Assembly (NCBI GenBank): GCA_016933535.1
Contig: JAFGAS010000086.1
Coordinates: 74,392 to 138,391 of the forward strand
DNA: 64,000 nucleotides
Direction of reading: 5' to 3'
From: Candidatus Zymogenaceae bacterium
GTDB taxonomy: Bacteria; Desulfobacterota; Zymogenia; Zymogenales; Zymogenaceae
The position numbers and the translations under genes are program-made. Numbering within the stretch: the stretch's first letter is position 1; the number at the start of each line of letters is the position of its first letter. The notes beneath the pieces are model-generated. The model searched no databases, was not told the DNA's origin, and saw only the letters and a list, made by a program, of their open reading frames with translations. Below are positions 30,098-47,065 of this stretch, piece by piece.

Positions 30098-32419
30098 ATG
30101 ACAAGGACCGAACCGACACGACAGGCATACATGGCCGCGATAGCAGTGGGAGGAGCTTCCATCGCCGGCCAGATCATCCTCATGCGGGAGATAATGATTC
30201 TCTTTTACGGCAACGAGCTTTCGGCAGGCATCTGTCTCTTCTCGTGGTTGTTCTGGACGGCATCCGGCAGTTTTTTCGGCACCATCGTTACCCGAAAAAG
30301 AGCCGTTGGAATACGAATTCTCCCGGCGCTGCTTCTGGCCGAATCCCTCCTGCTGCCGGCCACCGTTGTCGCCTGCCGCATCGCAAAAACGATCATCGGG
30401 ATATCCCAGGGGGAGATCATCGGAATCGGCCTGATAACGGCTATTGCGGGGGTCGTGCTGCTGCCCTTCTGTTTCTTCTCGGGATTTCTCTTTCCCCTGC
30501 TCATACGAACCGATCCGGCAGGCCCTCGAATCGACGGCGACGCCCCGGCCCGTATCTATCTCTTTGAATCCATCGGCTCATCGGTCTTCGGAATTATCAC
30601 CAGCCTTATCCTCATTCGGTATTTTGACGCGTTGACAATCTCGTTTTTCATCGGTGCCGTCGCCGGCTCGTCGGCGCTTATCATCTCACTTGTGGGCAGG
30701 CGCCGCACCCTGGTCTTCGTATCGGCGGTCATCGTCTCCCTTTTCGTCCTGCAGCCCGCCTTTTCGTTTCCTGATATCGGTGGGATCACCCGGCGTCTTC
30801 AGTGGAAAGGCTTTACGGTGGTCGAGTCGGCCGATTCTGTCTACGGGAACCTCACCGTAACCCGCTCTGGGAGCCAGACCACCTTTTACGACAGCGGAGT
30901 TCTCTCGTTCACCTATCCGGACGTGATGAGCAGCGAACTGGCCGTGATCTATCCCCTTCTTCTCCACCCTAGGCCAGTGCGGGTGCTGCTGATGGGGGGC
31001 GGAATTTCCTCGACCGTTTCCGAGATACTCAAACACCCTTCAGTTGCCGAGATCGACTACGTGGAGTTGGACCCGACACTTATCGACCTTGGCGTCAGAC
31101 ACCTCCCCCCGGAGGCAACACGCCCGCTGTCCGACGCCCGGGTTCGCGTTATCCACACGGACGGGCGCCTCTTCGTAAAAGAGGCGCGTGACCATTACGA
31201 CGTGATCATCGTCAACATGGCCGATCCCGTCAACGCCCGTATCAACCGCTACTTCACCCGGGAATTTTTCCAGGAAGTAAAGGGCATCCTTGCCTCCGGC
31301 GGGGTTTTCTCGATCTCGGTGGGCTCTTCCGAAGAGATCATCAGCCCCGTGCTCGCCTCCTTCCTCGGGAGCGTCTCCCGGACGATAGCGGCGGTCTTTC
31401 CCTTTACTGCGGTCGTTCCCGGCCAGACGGCCTTTTTCGTGGCGTCCGACCTCGCGTCCCGGATGGATATTGACCCCCAAGTCCTTATCTCCCGTATGAA
31501 TGACCGCGGGGTCGTCAACAGCTACGTTACCGAATACTATCTCCTCTATCAACTGAACGACGACCGCATCGGATATATCCGCCGTGCGATTGAAGGTACG
31601 AGAACCGCCGGGATCAATACCGACCTTTCTCCCACGGTGTACTACTACGACATGGTGCTGAGGAGCTATTCACTCTCACCCGGCCTGAAGATTGTCCTTT
31701 CCGATCTCGCCGGGTCACGGCCGAATCTCCCTGCGGCGGCCCTCGTCGTTTGCACGATCCTCTACGGCGGCTTTATCGCAGTCTGCCGCAGGAAAGGGGT
31801 TTCGCTGCCCGCCGTCACCCTGGTCCCCGCGGCGTTGGCCTCGGGATTTTCCGAGATCGCGCTTACCGTCGTCATCATCATAGCCTTTCAGACTTTCTAC
31901 GGCTACGTCTATTTCAGCCTCGGCCTGATCGTCTCGGCCTTCATGATCGGTCTTGCGGCCGGGACGGCCGCCGCCCGAGCGTGGGCCAAGGGCCTCCGTC
32001 GGCCCTGGCGGGCCCTCGTTATCGTTCAAGTCCTCTACGGCGTCTACTGCCTTTGCCTCGTGGGGGTTCTCGTCTTCTTCTCGACGTATGGATCCGGAGG
32101 GCCGCCCTGGGCATTTAGCGCGGCCTTCTCTTTGTTGAACATGTTATGCGGGATGCTTGCCGCCTTTCACTATGTCACCGCGGTGCGCTCCCTCACTTCG
32201 TCGGGCATACCCCCCAGCGCGGGTGGGTGGGTCTATGGGGCAAATCTTGCCGGCGCGGCCGCCGGCGCCCTGTTGGCATCGGTGGTCATGATCCCGATAT
32301 GGGGATTGGTTACGACAGTGCTGTTGGTCTCGGCGGTAGACCTGTGCGCGGCGGGAGTTGCCGGAATCGGGGCGGGATATTTAAGCGGTAAAACGGGCCG
32401 TGCTATCCAGGCCGGGTAA
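30098..32419 (+). CDS. Fused MFS-like / spermidine-synthase-fold membrane protein (14 TM, degenerate catalytic residues)
   Basis: 7 TM + SAM-fold domain (RVLLMGGG, YVELDP, DGRLFV, YDVIIVN..DP, FTREFF) + 7 TM. Confidence 0.85.
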   Translation: MTRTEPTRQAYMAAIAVGGASIAGQIILMREIMILFYGNELSAGICLFSWLFWTASGSFFGTIVTRKRAVGIRILPALLLAESLLLPATVVACRIAKTIIGISQGEIIGIGLITAIAGVVLLPFCFFSGFLFPLLIRTDPAGPRIDGDAPARIYLFESIGSSVFGIITSLILIRYFDALTISFFIGAVAGSSALIISLVGRRRTLVFVSAVIVSLFVLQPAFSFPDIGGITRRLQWKGFTVVESADSVYGNLTVTRSGSQTTFYDSGVLSFTYPDVMSSELAVIYPLLLHPRPVRVLLMGGGISSTVSEILKHPSVAEIDYVELDPTLIDLGVRHLPPEATRPLSDARVRVIHTDGRLFVKEARDHYDVIIVNMADPVNARINRYFTREFFQEVKGILASGGVFSISVGSSEEIISPVLASFLGSVSRTIAAVFPFTAVVPGQTAFFVASDLASRMDIDPQVLISRMNDRGVVNSYVTEYYLLYQLNDDRIGYIRRAIEGTRTAGINTDLSPTVYYYDMVLRSYSLSPGLKIVLSDLAGSRPNLPAAALVVCTILYGGFIAVCRRKGVSLPAVTLVPAALASGFSEIALTVVIIIAFQTFYGYVYFSLGLIVSAFMIGLAAGTAAARAWAKGLRRPWRALVIVQVLYGVYCLCLVGVLVFFSTYGSGGPPWAFSAAFSLLNMLCGMLAAFHYVTAVRSLTSSGIPPSAGGWVYGANLAGAAAGALLASVVMIPIWGLVTTVLLVSAVDLCAAGVAGIGAGYLSGKTGRAIQAG

Positions 32420-32446
32420 TATGGTCGAAGAATAGATCGTTTGCTC

Positions 32447-33664
32447 TCAGGCCCCCTTCGGAACCTCCCATATCCCCGCGATCGGGTACCCGCAGAAGGC
32501 GCATTTTCCCTTCTTGATCTTCACCTCTCCCACGAAGTAGCCCATCCGAAAGATAAGCATCCTGCCGCACTTCGGACAGTAGGTGGACTCGTACTTATGG
32601 CCCGGGACATTGCCGATATAGACGTATTCAAGGCCGACCCTCTTTGCCGCAGCAAAGGCCGCCTCCAGCGTCTCCACCGGCGTGTTCGGGAGGTTGGTGA
32701 GCCGATACATCGGGGTAAACCGTGAGAAATGGAGCGGTGTTTCTTTGCCGACCGCATCCCTGATCCATTCGCACATCTTGGTAATCGTTGCGATGTCGTC
32801 GTTTCTCGTGGGAACGACGAGGTTGGTGATCTCTACGTGAACCCCCGCCTTTTTGTACCCTTTGATGGAATCGAGCACGGGGGCAAGCCTCCCCTCGGTC
32901 ATAGACGAATAGTAGCCTTCGGTGAACCCCTTGAGGTCTATGTTGGCCGCCGTCAGGTACCTTGCGAGCTCCTTTCTGGGCCCGGGATTGATAAAGCCGT
33001 TTGAGTGCATGACGTTGATGAGCCCGGCCTTCTTGACGGCCCTGGCGCAGTCCAGCATATATTCGAAAAAGATCGTCGGCTCCACGTAGGTATAGGCGAC
33101 ACTGGCCGACCGGTAGGCTTTCGCCTCGTTGACGAGGGCCGCAGGCCACAGGCGGTAGTTGGCGGTGTTTTCCGGCCGGGCCTGGGAGATGTCGTAGTTC
33201 TGGCAGAACTTGCAGGTGAGGTTGCAGCCGGCGGTGGCGATGGAATATGAGGTAGTCCCCGGAAGGACGTGGAAAAACGGTTTCTTTTCGATCGGGTCGA
33301 CGTGGACGGCACAGGGATTGCCCCACACGAGGCTGTAGTATTTCCCCTTTCGGTTTTCCCTGACCTCGCAGTAGCCCCGCCTCCCGTCGCCCACCACGCA
33401 CCCCCGGGGGCACAGCAGGCACTTTACCATGCCGCCGGAAAGCGGCGTGTAGAACGGCGACTCCTTCGGCACCATGTATCCCAGCTCGGGATACCCGATC
33501 TTTAGCTCTTCCCCGGTAGTCGTGATCGGCTCGGCACAGGCAGACAGGGGCAGCCCCGCTGCGCAGAGGCCCAGCGCCCCCAGCGACACCCCGGCCAGGA
33601 AGTCCCTCCGGGATAGGGCCTCCCGGACGCCCTGTTGTCCCGCGTCCTTTCCCTTTCCACCCAC
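32447..33664 (-). CDS. amrS: AmmeMemoRadiSam system radical SAM enzyme with Tat signal
   Basis: CLLCPRGC..C, DPIEKKPFFH, GCNLTCKFCQN (CxxxCxxC), TYVEP, NIDLKGF, PLHFSRF, YVYIGNVPG, CPKC..CAFC; N-terminal SRRDFL; GTG start with GGAGG SD. Confidence 0.92.
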   Translation of the reverse strand: MGGKGKDAGQQGVREALSRRDFLAGVSLGALGLCAAGLPLSACAEPITTTGEELKIGYPELGYMVPKESPFYTPLSGGMVKCLLCPRGCVVGDGRRGYCEVRENRKGKYYSLVWGNPCAVHVDPIEKKPFFHVLPGTTSYSIATAGCNLTCKFCQNYDISQARPENTANYRLWPAALVNEAKAYRSASVAYTYVEPTIFFEYMLDCARAVKKAGLINVMHSNGFINPGPRKELARYLTAANIDLKGFTEGYYSSMTEGRLAPVLDSIKGYKKAGVHVEITNLVVPTRNDDIATITKMCEWIRDAVGKETPLHFSRFTPMYRLTNLPNTPVETLEAAFAAAKRVGLEYVYIGNVPGHKYESTYCPKCGRMLIFRMGYFVGEVKIKKGKCAFCGYPIAGIWEVPKGA

Positions 33665-33668
33665 GGCA

Positions 33669-35183
33669 CTATTCCTCCGAGAATACGTCGGCGGTAAACA
33701 CGGAGAGCCGGGCGTCTTCCTTTTTCCAGTCGCCCGGCATCAGTCCGGCCTTGTAGCAGATTTTTTCGAGATACTCGTCCAGGTCCCATCCCTGCTCTAC
33801 CGGCACCTGGGGAAGGAAGAGGCCCGACCGGCCTCCCCTGCGGATCACCAGGCCATGTTTCCCGATGACGATCTCATCGACGCTCTTGATCGGTTTGAGT
33901 TCCGAGAGCACCGATATCTCGATATCTATCTCCTTGAGCTCTTCCTTCGTCACCGGGTCGAGATAGAATCGAAGGTCGTAGACGGCCCCGAGGGCGGCCA
34001 GCGATATCGTTTCAAACAGGGGATAGACCGGCTCGATATAGCCTACGCAGCCCCGGAGCTCCCCCCCGTTGGTGAGGGTAACGAAGGCGGCACCGGGCCT
34101 TGAAAGGGCGGCCGAATTATTCGTAAAGTCAGGGATGTCTTTTCCCGACAGCTCGCACTCGATGGTTTTTCTCGCGATAGCGAGGAGCTTTTTCTTGTCG
34201 GCTGCCGTCAATCTCGTCCCGGGATCGTCCCCCATTCCCGCCGGCGGCCCTCCCCTCCCGTATACCACCGCCGAGATATATCCGACGACGGCCCCGGTTG
34301 TCCCGGTCTCAGTCCCGCTGTCGTCATACTTTGTCACCACGACCCTCGTCGAACCGAGGGCCCTTGCCGCCATAAGCGCCGTCACCACCGGTCCCCCCCC
34401 GCACGCCTCGGTCTTGCGGGTAATAAGGGCGTCGTAAAGCCCCTCGGGATCGTTCTTTTCAAGGAAGTTTCTGAAGACACCGTCGAGTTCCCGGCCTTCT
34501 TTGCGCGAGTGATAGTGCGACAGATCCGAGGAGGCGACGATCAGCACCTTTTTTCCGCCCACCGATTCCGAGATCGCCCGGGCCAGCTCCTCACACGAGG
34601 CCATGCTGACGCTGCCCATAACGACGGGAACGATCGCAAAATCACCGAGGACGACCTGGAGAAAGGGGATTTCTACCTCAACGGAGTGCTCAGGCAGATG
34701 GGGGAGCGGGTTTTTCGTGATATGCTCGCCGCTTTTTACGATCGAGTCGATCATATCGGCGTCGAGTATGACGTCGCCCAGCGGGGTACGGTACGGACCG
34801 TCTGCGTAGAGGGCCGCACCGTCGAATGAATAGTGATGGCTCGGCCCGATAATGATGACGGTGTCATAGGCCGTCCCGGCCAGCGCCTTGAATCCGGCGG
34901 CCGCCGTCTTGCCGGAATAGATATACCCGGCATGGGGAGCTATGACCGCGATCGACCGGCCCCCAACCGTTACGGCCGGCGCCTCGGCGAGGAATTGTTC
35001 GATCATCGCCCGCAAATCATTCGCATCGTCGGGATAAAAAGCCCCGGCCACTGCCGGAGGCCGGACCTTGGACTTATTGTCTGGTATATCCTGTGCGCAT
35101 GCAGATACAGCAAGGAAAATCAAGGTATAGTAAAATGCTAGGAAAAAGATTAGAATGCGTCCCCTGCAATAGGTTTCCTTCAT
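33669..35183 (-). CDS. amrB: AmmeMemoRadiSam protein B (Memo)-protein A (AMMECR1) fusion with signal peptide
   Basis: Memo motifs: RPPAVAGAFYP, APHAGYIYSG, GPSHH, EHSVEV, SSDLSHY, ACGGGP, VVGY. AMMECR1 motifs: AFVTL..LRGCVG, EISVLS, GLFLPQV, KAG. Start ATG 35183 with GAGGA SD. Confidence 0.92.
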   Translation of the reverse strand: MKETYCRGRILIFFLAFYYTLIFLAVSACAQDIPDNKSKVRPPAVAGAFYPDDANDLRAMIEQFLAEAPAVTVGGRSIAVIAPHAGYIYSGKTAAAGFKALAGTAYDTVIIIGPSHHYSFDGAALYADGPYRTPLGDVILDADMIDSIVKSGEHITKNPLPHLPEHSVEVEIPFLQVVLGDFAIVPVVMGSVSMASCEELARAISESVGGKKVLIVASSDLSHYHSRKEGRELDGVFRNFLEKNDPEGLYDALITRKTEACGGGPVVTALMAARALGSTRVVVTKYDDSGTETGTTGAVVGYISAVVYGRGGPPAGMGDDPGTRLTAADKKKLLAIARKTIECELSGKDIPDFTNNSAALSRPGAAFVTLTNGGELRGCVGYIEPVYPLFETISLAALGAVYDLRFYLDPVTKEELKEIDIEISVLSELKPIKSVDEIVIGKHGLVIRRGGRSGLFLPQVPVEQGWDLDEYLEKICYKAGLMPGDWKKEDARLSVFTADVFSEE

Positions 35184-35191
35184 TCTTTTCC

Positions 35192-35773
35192 TCAAATTAT
35201 TATACTATCTATACAACTCCTAAGCTCAGGACAAATAGTAGATAAAATACTGTAAAAGAGCTTTAAGGAACTTACTACAATAATAATCCACCATATAGGA
35301 CGTAAATACTTAAATATATTATCGTTAAATATAGTCGATATCGTATTTCCAGATCCTTTACTTTTTACCATTTTTCTGAATTCTGTATAGTATCTCTTCT
35401 CACATGGTAATCCGTTTTCTTCCCTTCTAATATTCTCTGCAAAAAAAGCAAGTCCTTCGCTTCGTTCACTAAAGATCACTTCCATAGAATTCATTATTTT
35501 ATTGTTACTACAGTATATAATTACTATTATTAAGTAGTAAATAACAAATTCTATCCACTCCTTAATCCCTGTCGTTTTATTTTCAAGTAAACTCGTGAAT
35601 AGTAGAATAGCTATTGCTACGAATATAGACTCTAAGGTAATAAAAATCCCTCGATATGACTGCAAAACGGAGTCATGCCAAAATACAGCCTGGTATAGAT
35701 GATTCAGATAATCCTGTTTATCTTCATTATTTTTGCCGTTTTTATCATTGGGCATTCCCTTATTATTTTTCAT
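35192..35773 (-). CDS. AT-rich hypothetical membrane protein (about 3 TM)
   Basis: 193-codon ORF in strongly AT-rich DNA; three hydrophobic segments. Confidence 0.7.
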   Translation of the reverse strand: MKNNKGMPNDKNGKNNEDKQDYLNHLYQAVFWHDSVLQSYRGIFITLESIFVAIAILLFTSLLENKTTGIKEWIEFVIYYLIIVIIYCSNNKIMNSMEVIFSERSEGLAFFAENIRREENGLPCEKRYYTEFRKMVKSKGSGNTISTIFNDNIFKYLRPIWWIIIVVSSLKLFYSILSTICPELRSCIDSIII

Positions 35774-35832
35774 GAACTATCTCGTCCCACCATATTTGCT
35801 ACTCTCAATTACTTTTGTAATCAGTATTACTT

Positions 35833-36051
35833 TTAATGACAACTGCCGCAATTTTTCGACGTACAGCCTCCGCAGCTGCCCCCCGATGACGATGAGACGA
35901 ACTTATCGCCGCTCTTGACGCCGCAGACCGACATCATCTTGTTTACCTGCGTGGAGGCACACTTCGGGCAGGAAACCTCGGCGGCGCGAGACATTACCAG
36001 TTCCTCAAATTCATTTCCACAGCCGCCGCATACGAATTCAAAAATCGGCAT
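35833..36051 (-). CDS. FmdB family zinc-ribbon protein
   Basis: MPIFEFVCGGCG..FEEL..CPKC; C-terminal CGGC...CGSC. Confidence 0.88.
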   Translation of the reverse strand: MPIFEFVCGGCGNEFEELVMSRAAEVSCPKCASTQVNKMMSVCGVKSGDKFVSSSSGGSCGGCTSKNCGSCH

Positions 36052-36054
36052 ATG

Positions 36055-36642
36055 CTATCTCCTGACCCAGGAGCCGTCGCCCCGCTGAATCCACCAGCCG
36101 GGGCCCGCCTGATTCTGCCAGCTGTCGGCAAAGAGCCTCTCGATCTGGGCAATCGTATCGGCCCCCAGGCCGTTGGCCGATGCGATCTCCTGGTAAAGAC
36201 GTCTGCGGTCGCCGTTGTCCGCGTCTACCAGACCGCGCATCATTCCGATTGCACCGACGTCCAGTCCGCCCTGGTTCCTGACCTCCAGGTATCCCCGATT
36301 GGTTATCCCGACGTTGCCGCCGTTATAATAGGGCATGAGTTGCGGGAACCGGCCCTCCATGGAGGAACGAATCGCCCGGATGGGCGGCGTGGATATATTG
36401 ATGTCGACTTGCGCCCAGGCGGTGTCCACAAACAATCCGGCCAGCGTAAACGGAACGGCCAGGTGTCCCTCGGGTTTGGTATCCGTGGCCGGCTCCGTTC
36501 CCTTCTTGTAGACGTCGTCGACGATTTCATCGGCCGCCTTTCGCACCGCTTCGGCCGGGAAATATATATTAACCGTAACGCATGCCCCGATAAGCAGCAT
36601 TATCGTCAAAAGTACGGGAACTACTTTTCTCATCATGGCCAA
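36055..36642 (-). CDS. YdbL/DUF1318 family lipoprotein (YnbE-like N-terminus)
   Basis: Lipobox IGAC-VTVNIYFP; GNVGITNRGYL, ADNGDRRRLYQEIA, GWWIQRGDGSW. Confidence 0.8.
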   Translation of the reverse strand: MAMMRKVVPVLLTIMLLIGACVTVNIYFPAEAVRKAADEIVDDVYKKGTEPATDTKPEGHLAVPFTLAGLFVDTAWAQVDINISTPPIRAIRSSMEGRFPQLMPYYNGGNVGITNRGYLEVRNQGGLDVGAIGMMRGLVDADNGDRRRLYQEIASANGLGADTIAQIERLFADSWQNQAGPGWWIQRGDGSWVRR

Positions 36643-36681
36643 CTCCTCCTCTGTGGCTCCTATTCGCCGCCTTGTCGGCGC

Positions 36682-39315
36682 CTACTTCGTTTCAATCTTG
36701 ATATTATTGGTGTTTTTCACGTTGATCCGTTCAAGCCGCCGCATCATGTCGTTAAACCGTATGCGGTTATTGGGGTTCTGATTGATCACGTTGATGCCGG
36801 TAATTCCGCTGCGCTTGATGAAATATTCCGTATCCCCCTCGTGAATGGTCCCCCTGAGCGTAAAATAGTCGTCCTTGAGCTCGAGGTGAATACCGATCTG
36901 CGAATAATTATAGTCATGGACGAACCGGTTAAGGCCGCTCTTGAGTACGCCCGAAAAGAGGTTCGATCCCGATCCGAGGATAGTGAGCTTATCGACAAAC
37001 TCGACGCTGACTCGTTTTTCTTGTCCCCGTTTATCGACCGTCCGGACATCGAAGACGAATCGTTCCGCCCCCCCGTAGGAGAATATCAGGTCGGAAATCC
37101 GTCCCTGGGCAATCCCGGTGACCCTGCCCACGTCGATCGTTTGGGTCAAGGCGCCCAAATCGAGGCCCGTAAATGCAACGTCACACCCGAGCCTCCTGCC
37201 GGCATCATAGATGTTCTGACCCCAGATATTTTCGATGTTTACCTCACCTTTGAATATTTTAGCAGTAAGGTTGCCCGAAGTAAACAGCTTTTTTTCCTCA
37301 ATCCTGACCTCGGAGATATCCCCGGACAGCTCTCCCTTAAGATCGAGCGCCTTCTCCTTCGTAAAGATCCCGGCAATATCGATTCCATCAACGTGTAAGG
37401 ACAGGCTTATTGTCCTGTTTTCATTGAAGATATCGCCCGCCTTAAATCCCCCGACCGTTACCGTACCGCCGGATGCCGAAAGCACCACGTCTTGCCCGAA
37501 CGTGACGGCGTTTCCCGCCAGGGCTGGAGATACGGTTATGCCCCCGATCTCGACTCCGCCTACGACGGCGCGTGAAAAGGCGATCTTCCCGAAATCTCCG
37601 GGCACAAAACGGTGGCCGGTACCGCTTTTCGGGCCGCCGGAAAGGTCAAGCGAAAAGGGCATGGACACCGATATCCCCTCGATCCTCGTGTCTATATCCG
37701 GGAAATCGAGAGACGAGCCGGCCACGGTTATATGACCGGAGACCCGCGGCGCGGACAGATTTCCCTTTATCGTACCCCTGCAATCCATCAAACCGGCTAT
37801 GGTGCCCCCGTAGATCCACGCGACGCGGTTGTTGAAGTAATTCCGAAAGAAGATATCAAAGACACTGCCCATGTCTACGGCCTTTAGACGATACGAAAGG
37901 TCTCCACTCGTATCGGTCGTGTCGAAATCGACATCTCCCGAAACCCCCGCCGTAAGGACCGAGGGGACTAAAATCTCACACGCGAGGCCCTTCACGTCCC
38001 CATCGTCGTTAATCCTACCTGAGGCCCCCATTGAGATACGCTCATTTTTAAAATCTATAAAGAAGCCCCAAAGCAGGAGGCCGAAATCATGCGCGTCCAG
38101 ACTCCCGTCAAACAATAATCCCCTCTTTATATCGTCCCTGAATTGAATCCGCGCGGTTGCCGAGATCCCCTCCCCAATGAAAACGGCGTCGGGGGACGAA
38201 AATCCGGCATTTATCAGATCGACCTCCAGGTTGCCCGCGATGCTTCCGTCGTCGGTATCGACCGTTCCCATCGTCAGGATACCATGCGACCGACCCTTTA
38301 TCTCCCACCCCGCGAGAAAATCGGGCAGGTGGTCCCCGAGGCGCTTGAGGTTTTCGGTTGACAGCCTCAGGGATTCCGAGCCTGACGTCATCTTCCACCT
38401 CCCATTCTCCTCGACTGCCAGGTCAAGGGACACGTCTCCGAAAACGGGAACCGAGAGCACCACGTCACTCAACATGAGTGTTCCGCGGCTCTCATTTTTC
38501 ATCGAGCCGGTGGCGCTGACGTTATCGAGCCCTATTCCGCCCCCATCCTCGGTTATGGAAAGGCCGCTGATCGCGGCGTCCGTCGCCTCAACGGAGTCGG
38601 GGTCCAGCCGGATGCGCGCGTCGAGCTGTTCTCCCGAAAAGAGGTACTCTCCGATTCGATAGCCCGATCCTTCCGTCGTGATGTCGCCCCGTGCCGAAAT
38701 GTCCGGATAGGTACCGGAGATATGCATCAGCGCGCTAAACGGCCCGCCAAGTATTACTCCGTCCTCCATCCCCTCCGTCCTTGCCGAACCCGCGATCGTG
38801 AGGGTTGCCCCAACGATACCGCGCTCGTAGCTCATGTCCACGTCCAGGAACGCGTACAGCCGTGCACCGTCGATCACGACAAATTCGCCGTCAACAACGA
38901 CGATATCCATTTCCATGATTCTTCGGACGATCTGCTGTCCGTTTTCACCCCCCCCGGGTGAGATATCCAGGGATACCGAGGGGGCGTGAACCGTGACCTT
39001 CTTTATTGCAAGGGGAGGGTTGATACCGAGGCCCAACTCGAGGGTGGCCGCACCGGATGAGAAGACGGTCGAGCCGATGACCAGATACATCGCCTCTACA
39101 GTGATCCGGCCGGGAGACACCATGTGTATTCCCGTCAATGACACCCGGTAGCCGACGGTTCGTTCCACGACGCGTCTGACGGCATCACTGATCAGCTCGT
39201 TACCGAAATAGTAGTAGAAGACCGCGATTATCGTTACCGACGCTAAAAAAACGGTCAGACAAAAGACCCAGATTATCCGGGCGGCGCCGGTTCCTTTCTT
39301 TAACTTCTTGGACAT
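36682..39315 (-). CDS. YdbH/AsmA-like intermembrane bridge protein
   Basis: Single N-terminal TM, long beta-rich Gly-rich body, conserved-looking C-terminus (YNYSQIG..FTLRG..INVINQNP..IRFNDM); upstream of a ydbL-like gene. Confidence 0.7.
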   Translation of the reverse strand: MSKKLKKGTGAARIIWVFCLTVFLASVTIIAVFYYYFGNELISDAVRRVVERTVGYRVSLTGIHMVSPGRITVEAMYLVIGSTVFSSGAATLELGLGINPPLAIKKVTVHAPSVSLDISPGGGENGQQIVRRIMEMDIVVVDGEFVVIDGARLYAFLDVDMSYERGIVGATLTIAGSARTEGMEDGVILGGPFSALMHISGTYPDISARGDITTEGSGYRIGEYLFSGEQLDARIRLDPDSVEATDAAISGLSITEDGGGIGLDNVSATGSMKNESRGTLMLSDVVLSVPVFGDVSLDLAVEENGRWKMTSGSESLRLSTENLKRLGDHLPDFLAGWEIKGRSHGILTMGTVDTDDGSIAGNLEVDLINAGFSSPDAVFIGEGISATARIQFRDDIKRGLLFDGSLDAHDFGLLLWGFFIDFKNERISMGASGRINDDGDVKGLACEILVPSVLTAGVSGDVDFDTTDTSGDLSYRLKAVDMGSVFDIFFRNYFNNRVAWIYGGTIAGLMDCRGTIKGNLSAPRVSGHITVAGSSLDFPDIDTRIEGISVSMPFSLDLSGGPKSGTGHRFVPGDFGKIAFSRAVVGGVEIGGITVSPALAGNAVTFGQDVVLSASGGTVTVGGFKAGDIFNENRTISLSLHVDGIDIAGIFTKEKALDLKGELSGDISEVRIEEKKLFTSGNLTAKIFKGEVNIENIWGQNIYDAGRRLGCDVAFTGLDLGALTQTIDVGRVTGIAQGRISDLIFSYGGAERFVFDVRTVDKRGQEKRVSVEFVDKLTILGSGSNLFSGVLKSGLNRFVHDYNYSQIGIHLELKDDYFTLRGTIHEGDTEYFIKRSGITGINVINQNPNNRIRFNDMMRRLERINVKNTNNIKIETK

Positions 39316-43463: not shown

Positions 43464-44396
43464 CTATCGGCCCGATTCGATCCTTTCTTTCGGCCCTTCC
43501 TCCGGTATCGATGGTTCGCACGCCTTCTCTTCCCGCCATTGTTTTGCCCTGAACTCCGAGAAGATGATGCCCGCGAGGATCAAGGCCGCCCCGATGTAGC
43601 CGCGGCCCCTGAGCACCTCGCCGCCCCACCAGTACGCAAATACCGCCGCGAAGACCGGCTCCATCGTAAAGATGACCGCCGCCCTTGTGGGGGACGTGTA
43701 CTGCTGGGCCCAGGTCTGGACGGTGAAGTTGAACGCGGTCGCGAAGATCGCCAGAAACACGATAGCGACAATCACGTATCCCGACAGCGCATGGGGCGCT
43801 TTGCCCACCGTAACCGCCGATACCCCCGCCCAGGCCGTCATCGCCACCATCTGGGCGATCGCCACGAGGTACACGTCATGCTTGACCGCGTACCACCCCG
43901 TTAGGATCACGTGGAAGGCCACGCTTACCGAGCATGCGATAACCCAGACGTCTCCCCGGTTGATTGAAAAATCGTCTCCGACCGTCAGCAGGAAGAGCCC
44001 CGCCGCGCTGATTACCGCGCCGATCGTGGCTGTCGCCGCCGGCATTTTCCTAAAAAAAACCGCCAGGATGAACGGGACAAGGATCACGTGCAACCCGGTG
44101 ATAAACCCGGCGTTGGAGGCCGACGTGTAAGTAAGACCGATCGTCTGAAGCACAAAGGCCGAGAAGAGGACGGAGCCGAGTATGAATCCGTCCCGGAAGG
44201 AGCGAAAGGTAAACCTTTTTAGCCGTCCGGCAAAGACGACCAGCAGGATCGCGGTGGCAAGCGCAAATCGCAGGAAAAGGAACCAATAGAGGTCAAGCTC
44301 CATAATGGCCGTCTTGACCATAATGAAAGACATTCCCCAGAAGAGGCAAATGAGGACGAGCATCAGGTCGGCGATGACGCCTTTTCTGGTCGCCAT
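43464..44396 (-). CDS. DMT/EamA family transporter
   Basis: WGMSF, LRFALA, QTIGLTYTSASNAGFITGL, PTRAAVIFTMEPVFA. Confidence 0.9.
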   Translation of the reverse strand: MATRKGVIADLMLVLICLFWGMSFIMVKTAIMELDLYWFLFLRFALATAILLVVFAGRLKRFTFRSFRDGFILGSVLFSAFVLQTIGLTYTSASNAGFITGLHVILVPFILAVFFRKMPAATATIGAVISAAGLFLLTVGDDFSINRGDVWVIACSVSVAFHVILTGWYAVKHDVYLVAIAQMVAMTAWAGVSAVTVGKAPHALSGYVIVAIVFLAIFATAFNFTVQTWAQQYTSPTRAAVIFTMEPVFAAVFAYWWGGEVLRGRGYIGAALILAGIIFSEFRAKQWREEKACEPSIPEEGPKERIESGR

Positions 44397-44418
44397 GGGA
44401 ACCCTCGAGATAATGGGT

Positions 44419-44445
44419 AAAAGAAAGGGGCATTTCTCATGCCCC
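44419..44445 (-). terminator. Intrinsic terminator after ahcY
   Basis: Minus strand: GGGGCAT-GAGAA-ATGCCCC followed by TTTCTTTT. Confidence 0.7.
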
Positions 44446-44492
44446 GTAGTCTATCGATCTTCTCGTACTGTAATAGCGCTTACGGCCGTCGA

Positions 44493-45818
<1,326 letters not shown>

Positions 45819-45895
45819 CTATCTTCCTTTCCGCCGCCTGCCGACAACCCGATTTTTCTTTTTTCGGGCATTGTTGGGCGATGGAAACGGACTCC

Positions 45896-47065
45896 CTACA
45901 CTCCGGCCGCTTTCTTGAGCCGTTTGGCCATATCGGTTACTTCCCAGTTAAAGCCCTTCTCTTCCCTGCCGAAGTGGCCGTAGGCGGCCGTCCTCGTATA
46001 TATCGGGTTGAGCAGGTCGAGCCGTTCAATTATGGCCGACGGGCGAAAATCAAACTCCTCTTGAATGATCCGGGCAATCTGATCCGGCGGAATGACGCTG
46101 GTCCCTCCGGTGTTAATCATAAGGGAAACCGGCTCGGCCTTCCCGATCGCATAGGCGACCTGAACCTCGCAACGTTCTGCAAGACCCGCTGCTACGACGT
46201 TTTTGGCAACGTAGCGCGCCATGTAGGAACCGGAGCGGTCGACTTTTGAGGGATCTTTGCCCGAAAAACATCCGCCCCCGTGGCTCCCCTGGCCTCCGTA
46301 GGTATCCACGATGATCTTGCGTCCGGTCACACCGCAGTCGCCCTGGGGGCCGCCGATAACAAAACGTCCGGTTTCGTTGACGTAGAATTTTGTCTTTTTA
46401 TCGAGGAGGCTGTCCGGCATGACCGTCCTAATGACCTCCTCAATGATCGATTCCTTGAGCTTCTGGTACTTCACATCGGGATTATGCTGGGCGGCCACGA
46501 CGACTGCGTCCACCCTCACGGGCTTGTTATTGACATACTGGACCGTCACCTGGGACTTTCCGTCGGGGCGAAGAAACGGCAGTATGCCCTTTTTCCGAAC
46601 TTCGGCAAGTCTCCTGCATACCTTGTGGGCGAACATGATGCTCATCGGCATCAGCTCGGGAGTATCGTCACAGGCATATCCGAACATCAACCCTTGGTCA
46701 CCGGCGCCCTGCTCTTTGTGGAGACCCTGGCCGGGGGTTACTCCCTGAGAAATATCGGGAGACTGTTTGTCGATGGAAGTCAACACGGCGCAGGTCTCCC
46801 AATCAAATCCCATCGTGGCGTCGGTATATCCTATGTCTTTTATGGTGTTACGGACAATCTGCGGCATATCCACCCAGGTGTCGGTGGTGATTTCCCCGGC
46901 TATGATGGCAAATCCGGTGGATACAAGGGTCTCGCACGCAACCCGCCCTTTTTTGTCTTCGGCGATTATCGCGTCGAGAATTGCATCGGAGATCTGATCG
47001 GCCACCTTGTCGGGATGGCCTTCGGTTACCGATTCCGATGTGAAGAGAAAGTCAGTCATTGACAT
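45896..47065 (-). CDS. metK: S-adenosylmethionine synthetase
   Basis: [35 protein letters not shown]. Confidence 0.98.

Follow-up and report, generated by a model that had tools for sequence, protein, structure and literature searches.

A twin-arginine-type signal on the radical SAM enzyme of an AmmeMemoRadiSam locus in a Candidatus Zymogenaceae bacterium

The DNA analyzed here is a 64,000-nucleotide stretch (the window) of contig JAFGAS010000086.1 from a Candidatus Zymogenaceae bacterium. Its subject is amrS, the gene for the radical S-adenosylmethionine (SAM) enzyme of an AmmeMemoRadiSam system (AmrS), which begins with a signal of the twin-arginine translocation (Tat) type ahead of the enzyme proper. 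The gene directly upstream encodes AmrB-AmrA, a fusion in which TIGR04336 matches residues 45–311 and TIGR04335 residues 336–505, with Pfam Memo and AMMECR1 matches as well; 4 nt separate its TAG stop from the GTG start of amrS (33664–33662). On the other side of amrS lies the gene for a membrane protein with a spermidine-synthase-like domain. The coordinates of these genes and their features, along with those of related genes elsewhere in the genome, are collected in Table 1.

Table 1. Features of the amrS locus (positions in the window) and, in the last row, related genes on other contigs of the genome
Feature	Position	Strand	Remarks
amrS	32447..33664	minus	AmmeMemoRadiSam-system radical SAM enzyme (AmrS), 405 aa, GTG start; TIGR04337 and PF04055 matches
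Shine-Dalgarno sequence GGAGG	33674..33678	minus	9 nt before the amrS GTG, within the end of the upstream gene
Twin-arginine motif S18-R19-R20-D21-F22-L23 (then A)	33596..33613	minus	R20 and F22 at least 90% conserved in the 73-row alignment A1
h-region, residues 24–40, AGVSLGALGLCAAGLPL	33545..33595	minus	Helix predicted at 19–36
Lipobox L40-S41-A42-C43	33536..33547	minus	A42-C43-A44 alternatively a signal peptidase I site
Linker, residues 44–58	33491..33535	minus	Low-confidence, between signal and folded enzyme; A-E-P after C43
Met64, alternative internal start	33473..33475	minus	Aligns with the start of signal-less AmrS
N-terminal Cys motif C82-x2-C85-x3-C89...C99	33368..33421	minus	Auxiliary metal site; invariant in A1
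Radical SAM cluster motif C147-x3-C151-x2-C154	33203..33226	minus	Invariant in A1 (73 sequences)
C-terminal motif C363-x2-C366...C388-x2-C391	32492..32578	minus	Invariant in A1
14-helix membrane protein	30098..32419	plus	773 aa; "fused MFS/spermidine synthase" in NCBI names; convergent to amrS; PF01564
Spermidine-synthase-like domain, residues 226–541	30773..31720	plus	Best solved fold 1uir, TM-score 0.76 over target
amrB-amrA fusion (Memo-like and AMMECR1-like)	33669..35195	minus	508 aa from TTG or 504 aa from ATG at Met5
AmrB-AmrA Sec-type/lipoprotein signal, residues 1–33, lipobox V-S-A-C33	35097..35195	minus	Sequence reading
Dispersed signal-less set (two AmrS, one Memo, one AMMECR1)	G000:C85:187040-187996, G000:C47:19795-20832, G000:C26:100005-100787, G000:C54:35289-35786		

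By score, motifs, and neighbors, AmrS is, as far as its sequence tells, a true member of the AmmeMemoRadiSam family. TIGR04337 (NCBIfam AmrS) matched residues 71–403 with 356.3 bits against a cut-off of 220. The resemblance to the canonical system, the function of which is uncharacterized, extends to all three of its models (TIGR04337, TIGR04336, and TIGR04335), which scored above cut-off on adjacent genes, and to the CX3CX2C motif and the N- and C-terminal Cys motifs, which are intact. The locus departs from that system in several respects. Canonical AmrS proteins have ~325–350 aa and no signal, like the two paralogs of this genome, whereas the protein studied here carries a 70-aa Tat-type extension; AmrB and AmrA are fused behind a general secretory (Sec)/lipoprotein signal; and the fourth linked gene encodes a membrane protein with a spermidine-synthase-like domain. 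Relative to the described form, the differences are export signals on all parts and a membrane-embedded fourth partner. The best solved fold for AmrS was the pyruvate formate-lyase (PFL) activase 3cb8 (E 3.2e-14, template modeling score [TM-score] 0.83 over target, 19% identity), and the PFL activating enzyme (3cb8, 3c8f) also provided the only sequence match in the PDB. The hidden Markov models for activases scored well under their cut-offs (TIGR02493, 49.7 against 231.75; TIGR02494, 29.6 against 174.35), and unlike glycyl-radical activases, AmrS has extra Cys-rich N- and C-terminal parts, an export signal, and no glycyl-radical enzyme partner.

The N-terminal extension of AmrS comprises ~70 residues. 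Because the TIGR04337 match begins only at residue 71, the first ~70 residues form an extension before the Cys-rich N-terminus of the family (C82–C99), just where the original prediction, made from the letters of this DNA, had placed an export signal. The translation begins MGGKGKDAGQQGVREALSRRDFLAGVSLGALGLCAAGLPLSACAEP. Tat signals have the consensus S/T-R-R-x-F-L-K following a polar n-region, and AmrS agrees with it in having a polar, Lys/Gly-rich n-region and the motif S18-R-R-D-F-L-A. The best 11-residue hydropathy in the h-region was 1.99, compared with a mean of 1.85 ± 0.31 in homologs (n = 118). The S18-RRDFL motif, the hydrophobic stretch, and the L-S-A-C43 that follows had been described exactly, coordinates included. 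In the AlphaFold (AF2) model of AmrS, which had a mean predicted local distance difference test (pLDDT) score of 91.6, residues 1–13 are disordered, a lone helix spans residues 19–36, pLDDT falls below 50 at residues 38–51, and a confident fold begins at ~55. A loose filter for RR plus a hydrophobic stretch was passed by 46 of the 8185 open frames of the genome.

The GTG start and its GGAGG Shine-Dalgarno sequence are present as originally claimed, and codons 1–44 occupy positions 33533–33664. Against three same-family orthologs, these codons showed 11–13 synonymous-only changes beside 17–23 amino-acid changes, and the frame is therefore read as protein. A start downstream of the RR motif, for example at Met64, had been named as the finding that would undo the prediction. 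On checking, it does not hold: the Shine-Dalgarno sequence at the GTG is strong, the Met64 ATG is preceded only by GGGA, 3 nt upstream, with no good Shine-Dalgarno sequence, and the position is Met in the 13 closest homologs, with Ile or Leu in more distant ones. Given this and the protein-level conservation upstream of it, Met64 was rejected as the main start, though a minor internal start may occur there. A promoter and terminator scan of positions 32000–36800 returned nothing useful.

We then examined how far the signal is conserved. [RK]R-x-F/L-L with an uncharged hydrophobic stretch was found at the same place in 117 of the 120 nearest AmrS homologs (54–89% identity), 90 of them with RR and 27 with KR, typically as T-K-R-E-F-L-K. 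Conservation of the arginine pair, which the original prediction had proposed to check among close homologs, thus extends far beyond close relatives. Across 80 related loci from public genomes, classed partly by script and partly by eye, the AmrS N-terminus was Tat-type in 52, Sec-type in 19, and without a signal in nine. The Tat-type proteins came from records titled Desulfobacterota or "delta proteobacterium," Acidobacteria (Acidobacteriota), Zixibacteria, Verrucomicrobia, and Kiritimatiellae, and also from records titled Ignavibacteria, Bacteroidota, Latescibacterota, Aminicenantes, and others; at least 11 of 20 relatives have a signal-bearing AmrS. Two cultured carriers are among the related loci, namely Desulfoferrobacter suflitae (L017) and Dethiosulfatarculus sandiegensis (L025). 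Both the signal and its conservation are direct observations from sequence and comparison, as are the signals of its partners and the linkage of the genes. The expectation that such an enzyme would be very rare did not survive: the signal marks a large clade across many phyla, which appears rare only in print. In the part of the literature available to us, no paper was found that describes a radical SAM enzyme with a Tat signal or outside the cytoplasm, or that deals with where the AmmeMemoRadiSam system is located. Burroughs et al. 2019 (J Biol Chem) are said to have analyzed Memo-AMMECR1-radical SAM contexts.

A FastTree phylogeny was built from 157 core domains, comprising 139 of 150 cluster representatives, 15 near homologs, and the three copies of this genome; the eleven representatives left out had fewer than 270 aligned residues. 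The tree contains a group of 67 (Shimodaira-Hasegawa-like support 90) with all 44 Tat-type proteins, 10 of the 12 fusion or long proteins, three Sec-type proteins, and 10 that the script called "none," several of which visibly bear RR or are truncated. On the other side are 85 signal-less rows, which include both paralogs of this genome, and in addition two Memo-AMMECR1-AmrS fusions. Of these two fusions, P0145 has a Sec-type signal and P0146 is truncated N-terminally. Within the signal-bearing group, 66 of 67 rows retain the radical SAM motif and 59 the N-terminal Cys motif, which is also present in 88 of 90 other rows.

Several fusions in the signal-bearing group join AmrS to FMN_bind domains, to NapH/NosR-like Fer4_5 membrane parts, or to DsbD_2. 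FMN_bind domains are flavinylated outside the cytoplasm. The flavinylation motif D-x-[IV]-[ST]-G-A-T is kept in all five FMN_bind domains, and in P0132 and P0147 no membrane helix lies between the FMN domain and AmrS. Extracytoplasmic flavinylation of the fused domain would therefore place AmrS outside and suggests an electron route in those lineages. Extracytoplasmic electron-transfer modules with ApbE-flavinylated FMN_bind, NapH/NosR-like, and DsbD-like parts were reportedly described by Meheust et al. 2021; such modules, with the motif intact, are what some AmrS of the signal-bearing group are fused to. Unlike those fusions, the window holds no fused module of this kind, and one FMN_bind protein and one ApbE are encoded elsewhere in the genome. 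In the portion of the literature that could be consulted, no paper was found linking flavinylated FMN modules with radical SAM enzymes. The AmrS fusion proteins seen were P0122, P0131, P0132, P0147, P0150, P0135, P0151, P0145, and P0138, and some of them also include Memo and AMMECR1 in the same polypeptide, preceded by a signal or a membrane helix.

The linked AmrB-AmrA protein has a signal of a different type. Of 120 AmrB-AmrA homologs, 99 begin with a hydrophobic extension, five with extensions of other kinds, and 16 with none; the Tat consensus was found in none of the 99. Their h-regions had a hydropathy of 2.92 ± 0.37 (n = 99), far above the 1.85 of AmrS. This split in hydropathy and RR fits what would be expected if iron-sulfur (Fe-S)-bearing AmrS used Tat and cofactor-free AmrB-AmrA used Sec. 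An AmrB signal was present in 29 of 30 related loci with a readable N-terminus; the remaining one, L076, carries a frameshift. The operon is headed by a 193-aa open reading frame (35192..35773, minus strand), which is predicted to contain membrane helices, matches neither Pfam nor NCBIfam, and ends 4 nt inside amrB-amrA as read from its TTG start. It lies in an island of 29–37% GC (positions 35000–35800) within surroundings of ~58–60% GC, and looks like a foreign insertion.

Homologs of the membrane neighbor stand beside AmrS in 42 of the 80 loci, in either orientation, when all open reading frames of these loci are clustered. The protein scored 37.7 bits against NF037959 (cut-off 40), and all curated SpeE models were below cut-off. 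Its AF2 model (pLDDT 88.7) shows seven helices, a 316-residue domain, and then six to seven helices. With membrane-bound aminopropyltransferases and "fused MFS/spermidine synthase" proteins (NF037959, PRK03612), it shares the spermidine synthase fold and PF01564; unlike in those proteins, its domain is flanked on either side by a 7-helix half and has a predicted outward orientation. The far-side loops of the helices flanking the domain are rich in K and R (GRRR and CRRK; means of 2.8 and 3.1 K+R, with few acidic residues, across 72 homologs), and the other loops alternate as expected for an N-in/C-in protein; on these two grounds, an outward-facing domain is predicted. The same K/R-rich flanking loops were found in loci with a signal-less AmrS, where an inverted partner topology had been considered and was not seen. 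Invariant residues in the domain are G301, G302, D320, E323, D346, and D355. Where SpeE-type aminopropyltransferases have GGGDGG, the membrane neighbor has GGG[IVL][SG][SG], and the D-S-x-D-P box of SpeE is N/H-L-P-D-P here.

Mature AmrS (residues 45–405) was modeled in complex with this domain. The interaction score ipSAE was 0.72 (0.67, 0.72, and 0.75 in individual runs), with 0.00 for the best of three controls, and the runs shared at least 77% of contacts at a partner pLDDT of at least 81. The mark used for ipSAE was reached by 116 of 157 solved complexes and two of 215 mismatched pairs, a rough calibration in which our own alignments were used. On the AmrS side, the modeled interface includes residues 155–168, right after the cluster motif, and 318–332. 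The model supports binding of AmrS to the predicted outward domain of the membrane neighbor.

Elsewhere in the genome (G000; 2.94 Mb, 89% complete), RR signals were observed on a NiFe hydrogenase small subunit, a molybdopterin oxidoreductase, a Rieske protein, a DUF362 protein, an amidohydrolase, and four sulfatases, and from these signals, together with two TatA/B genes, we take it that the genome uses Tat. Tat-exported Fe-S proteins include the [NiFe] hydrogenase small subunit, and Tat-dependent lipoproteins exist. AmrS has the same signal architecture as such proteins, and comparable signals are found on the hydrogenase small subunit and on a lipobox-bearing sulfatase of this genome; we know of no radical SAM enzyme among the known classes of Tat cargo. 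That sulfatase (G000:C48:48227-49909), with a Tat motif and the lipobox LFAGCAS, is a second candidate Tat lipoprotein. The frame of the molybdopterin oxidoreductase (G000:C85:332987-333544) stops after 185 aa, possibly at a selenocysteine codon. The genome has three AmrS-family genes, and only the copy in the window bears a signal; the others, of 331 and 352 aa, begin as ordinary AmrS proteins do. Elsewhere the genome also encodes signal-less Memo (267 aa) and AMMECR1 (186 aa) proteins. With a dispersed signal-less set and a clustered signal-bearing set, both versions therefore coexist in one genome.

The original prediction of an exported radical SAM enzyme is thus supported by conservation of RR, by the long reading frame, by partners predicted to face outward, and by the FMN fusions. 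Taken together, we consider it fairly probable that AmrS is exported by Tat and acts at the outer face of the inner membrane with exported partners. Several observations weigh against this reading. tatC was not found in the assembly by TIGR00945, PF00902, or tblastn with same-family TatC (E up to 10), and neither of the two TatA/B genes is followed by it. However, tatC was found in 20 of 20 relatives, and G000 contains nothing that corresponds to the 13 kb surrounding the gene in G003 and G001, two genomes of the same genus, so the absence of tatC is likely an assembly gap. Moreover, the topology of the membrane neighbor derives from our own hydropathy and charge counts. The 19 Sec-type AmrS signals, which have a short K-rich n-region, a very hydrophobic h-region, and no RR, fit poorly with insertion of the cluster in the cytoplasm. 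Among the nine loci without an AmrS signal, AmrB is still a lipoprotein in six, and a membrane partner of the outward type lies beside AmrS in four (L028, L041, L042, and L062). Finally, no extracytoplasmic source of SAM or low-potential electrons is known, and none is encoded beside amrS apart from the candidate membrane partner.

The Sec-type loci include L005, L006, L035, L044, L047, L049, L057, L059, L061, and L065, mostly with Omnitrophota titles. Those with a signal-less AmrS and an adjacent lipoprotein AmrB are L028, L041, L042, L060, L069, and L077, five of which have Thermodesulfovibrionales/Nitrospirae-type titles. A separate upstream gene with a Tat signal, on which a signal-less AmrS might hitch-hike, was looked for in L041 and L060 and none was seen.

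In the mechanism we favor, AmrS would be made with a cleavable twin-arginine signal, would fold and take up its [4Fe-4S] cluster(s) in the cytoplasm, and would then cross the inner membrane by Tat. In this lineage, it would probably then be lipid-modified at Cys43 and so be tethered to the outer face of the inner membrane. There it would join the Sec-exported lipoprotein AmrB-AmrA, and its active-site face would dock on the outward spermidine-synthase-like domain of the membrane neighbor, a candidate supplier or holder of a SAM-type nucleoside. For other lineages, the candidates for supplying electrons are fused modules, either flavinylated FMN domains or NapH/DsbD-like parts. Of these steps, export, lipidation, complex formation, and extracytoplasmic radical SAM chemistry are what we infer.

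The form in which exported AmrS would be held depends on the end of its signal. A lipobox has the consensus [LVI][ASTVI][GAS]C at the end of the h-region, and L40-S41-A42-C43 satisfies it; A-C-A-E also satisfies the -3/-1 rule of signal peptidase I. Of the lipobox claim in the original prediction, the fit to consensus stands, and 14 of the 16 closest homologs (at least 67% identity) retain the Cys, as counted by regular expression with P0005 and P0012 added by eye. The claim does not carry over to 104 more distant homologs, in which the Cys was not seen apart from a doubtful match of the expression inside the h-region of P0080. The two exceptions among the closest set read Y-A-R-A-E (P0013) and V-C-T-R-A-E (P0016) at the Cys site, and the more distant homologs mostly end in A-x-A, for example PSPASA-Q. 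Since the lipobox is kept only in the closest clade and further relatives have A-x-A, a lipid anchor is likely in this clade and is not predicted to be a trait of the whole AmrS family.

The best-surviving alternative, which concerns the form of export and falls within the likelihood we give to export as a whole, is that AmrS is exported by Tat and is not a lipoprotein. Signal peptidase I would cut after A42-C43-A44 to leave a soluble periplasmic enzyme, or the uncleaved signal would serve as an anchor. The A-x-A endings of distant exported homologs that lack the Cys, the A-R-A-E of P0013 and T-R-A-E of P0016 at the same place, and the fit of A-C-A-E to the -3/-1 rule all point this way. However, L-S-A-C fits a lipobox and is so widely kept among the closest homologs, the partner AmrB-AmrA has V-S-A-C (its close homologs also carry P-[AS]-C), and LspA (PF01252, once) and Lgt (PF01790, twice) are present in the genome. 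In addition, a same-family relative (L125, G005:C7:60394-64596) has Tyr at the lipobox Cys site in both AmrS (PSYARAEE) and AmrB-AmrA (PSYLRGEE), and this joint loss of Cys from the two proteins is suggestive, though seen in a single relative. Weighing these points, we regard export without lipidation as the less probable form, with perhaps a modest share of the likelihood; given export, a lipid anchor at Cys43 is somewhat favored over cleavage after A-C-A.

A second alternative accepts export and places the SAM-dependent step before it. AmrS would react on itself or on a cargo in the cytoplasm, or would leave loaded for a single turnover, so that the exported protein would be a product carrier or a one-shot activase and not a turnover enzyme. 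As far as we know, SAM and flavodoxin- or ferredoxin-type reductants occur only in the cytoplasm, which speaks for this possibility, as do the facts that Tat exports folded, loaded proteins and that the PFL activase, the best solved fold, acts on a protein partner. But AmrB-AmrA would go out unfolded by Sec, and any protein-on-protein step with it must then take place outside. Furthermore, the nucleoside-binding residues of the outward domain are invariant, and the fusions with FMN domains that face outward suggest that electrons are continuously supplied. We judge a reaction completed before export to be improbable.

It is similarly improbable, in our view, that AmrS is not exported at all, with the RR segment a relic, a membrane-targeting or chaperone-binding peptide, or bypassed by a start at Met64: the missing tatC, the alignment of Met64 with the start of signal-less AmrS, the cytoplasmic location of radical SAM enzymes otherwise known, and the relatives that have the same partners and no AmrS signal would agree with this, but they are set against a signal whose consensus and physico-chemical features are conserved across phyla, a frame under protein-level selection with a strong Shine-Dalgarno sequence at its GTG and none at Met64, Ile or Leu at that position in distant homologs, the Sec signal of the partner in nearly all readable loci, TatC in every relative, and two signal-less AmrS paralogs that the genome already holds.

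With Tat export of AmrS preferred, we can postulate that an entire radical SAM pathway operates at the outer face of the inner membrane. In it, SAM or a SAM-derived nucleoside would be brought to tethered AmrS by the partner with 7+7 helices, electrons would come from low-potential carriers in the periplasm (elsewhere from fused modules), and Memo-AMMECR1 and AmrS would act on an envelope substrate. This fuller scheme is tentative, and we hold it to be possible rather than expected. Outside the locus, ~10 kb away, metK (SAM synthetase), ahcY (S-adenosylhomocysteine [SAH] hydrolase), and a gene for an EamA/DMT-family transporter lie in a row (43464..47065, minus strand), and the ahcY-EamA pair is kept in nine of nine family relatives. 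Only its family makes the transporter a candidate carrier of SAM or SAH. The idea that it carries SAM specifically for exported AmrS was rejected, with no specific link found; in three of the nine relatives (G007–G009), all AmrS matches lacked a signal.

Radical SAM chemistry depends on an oxygen-sensitive cluster, on SAM, and on a low-potential electron, and the prevailing view places all three only in the cytoplasm. That view is challenged by a large clade that spans many phyla and conserves its export signals, and if the clade works outside, SAM and reductant must be available there. If true, the outer-face pathway would provide the first case of radical SAM chemistry outside the cytoplasm, and also the first of a dedicated route that delivers SAM to the periplasm. 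The cultured carriers make the question of export directly testable. Human homologs of Memo and AMMECR1 are disease-linked, and the search for the function of these proteins would be narrowed, as their substrate in this clade should be a component of the envelope or membrane.

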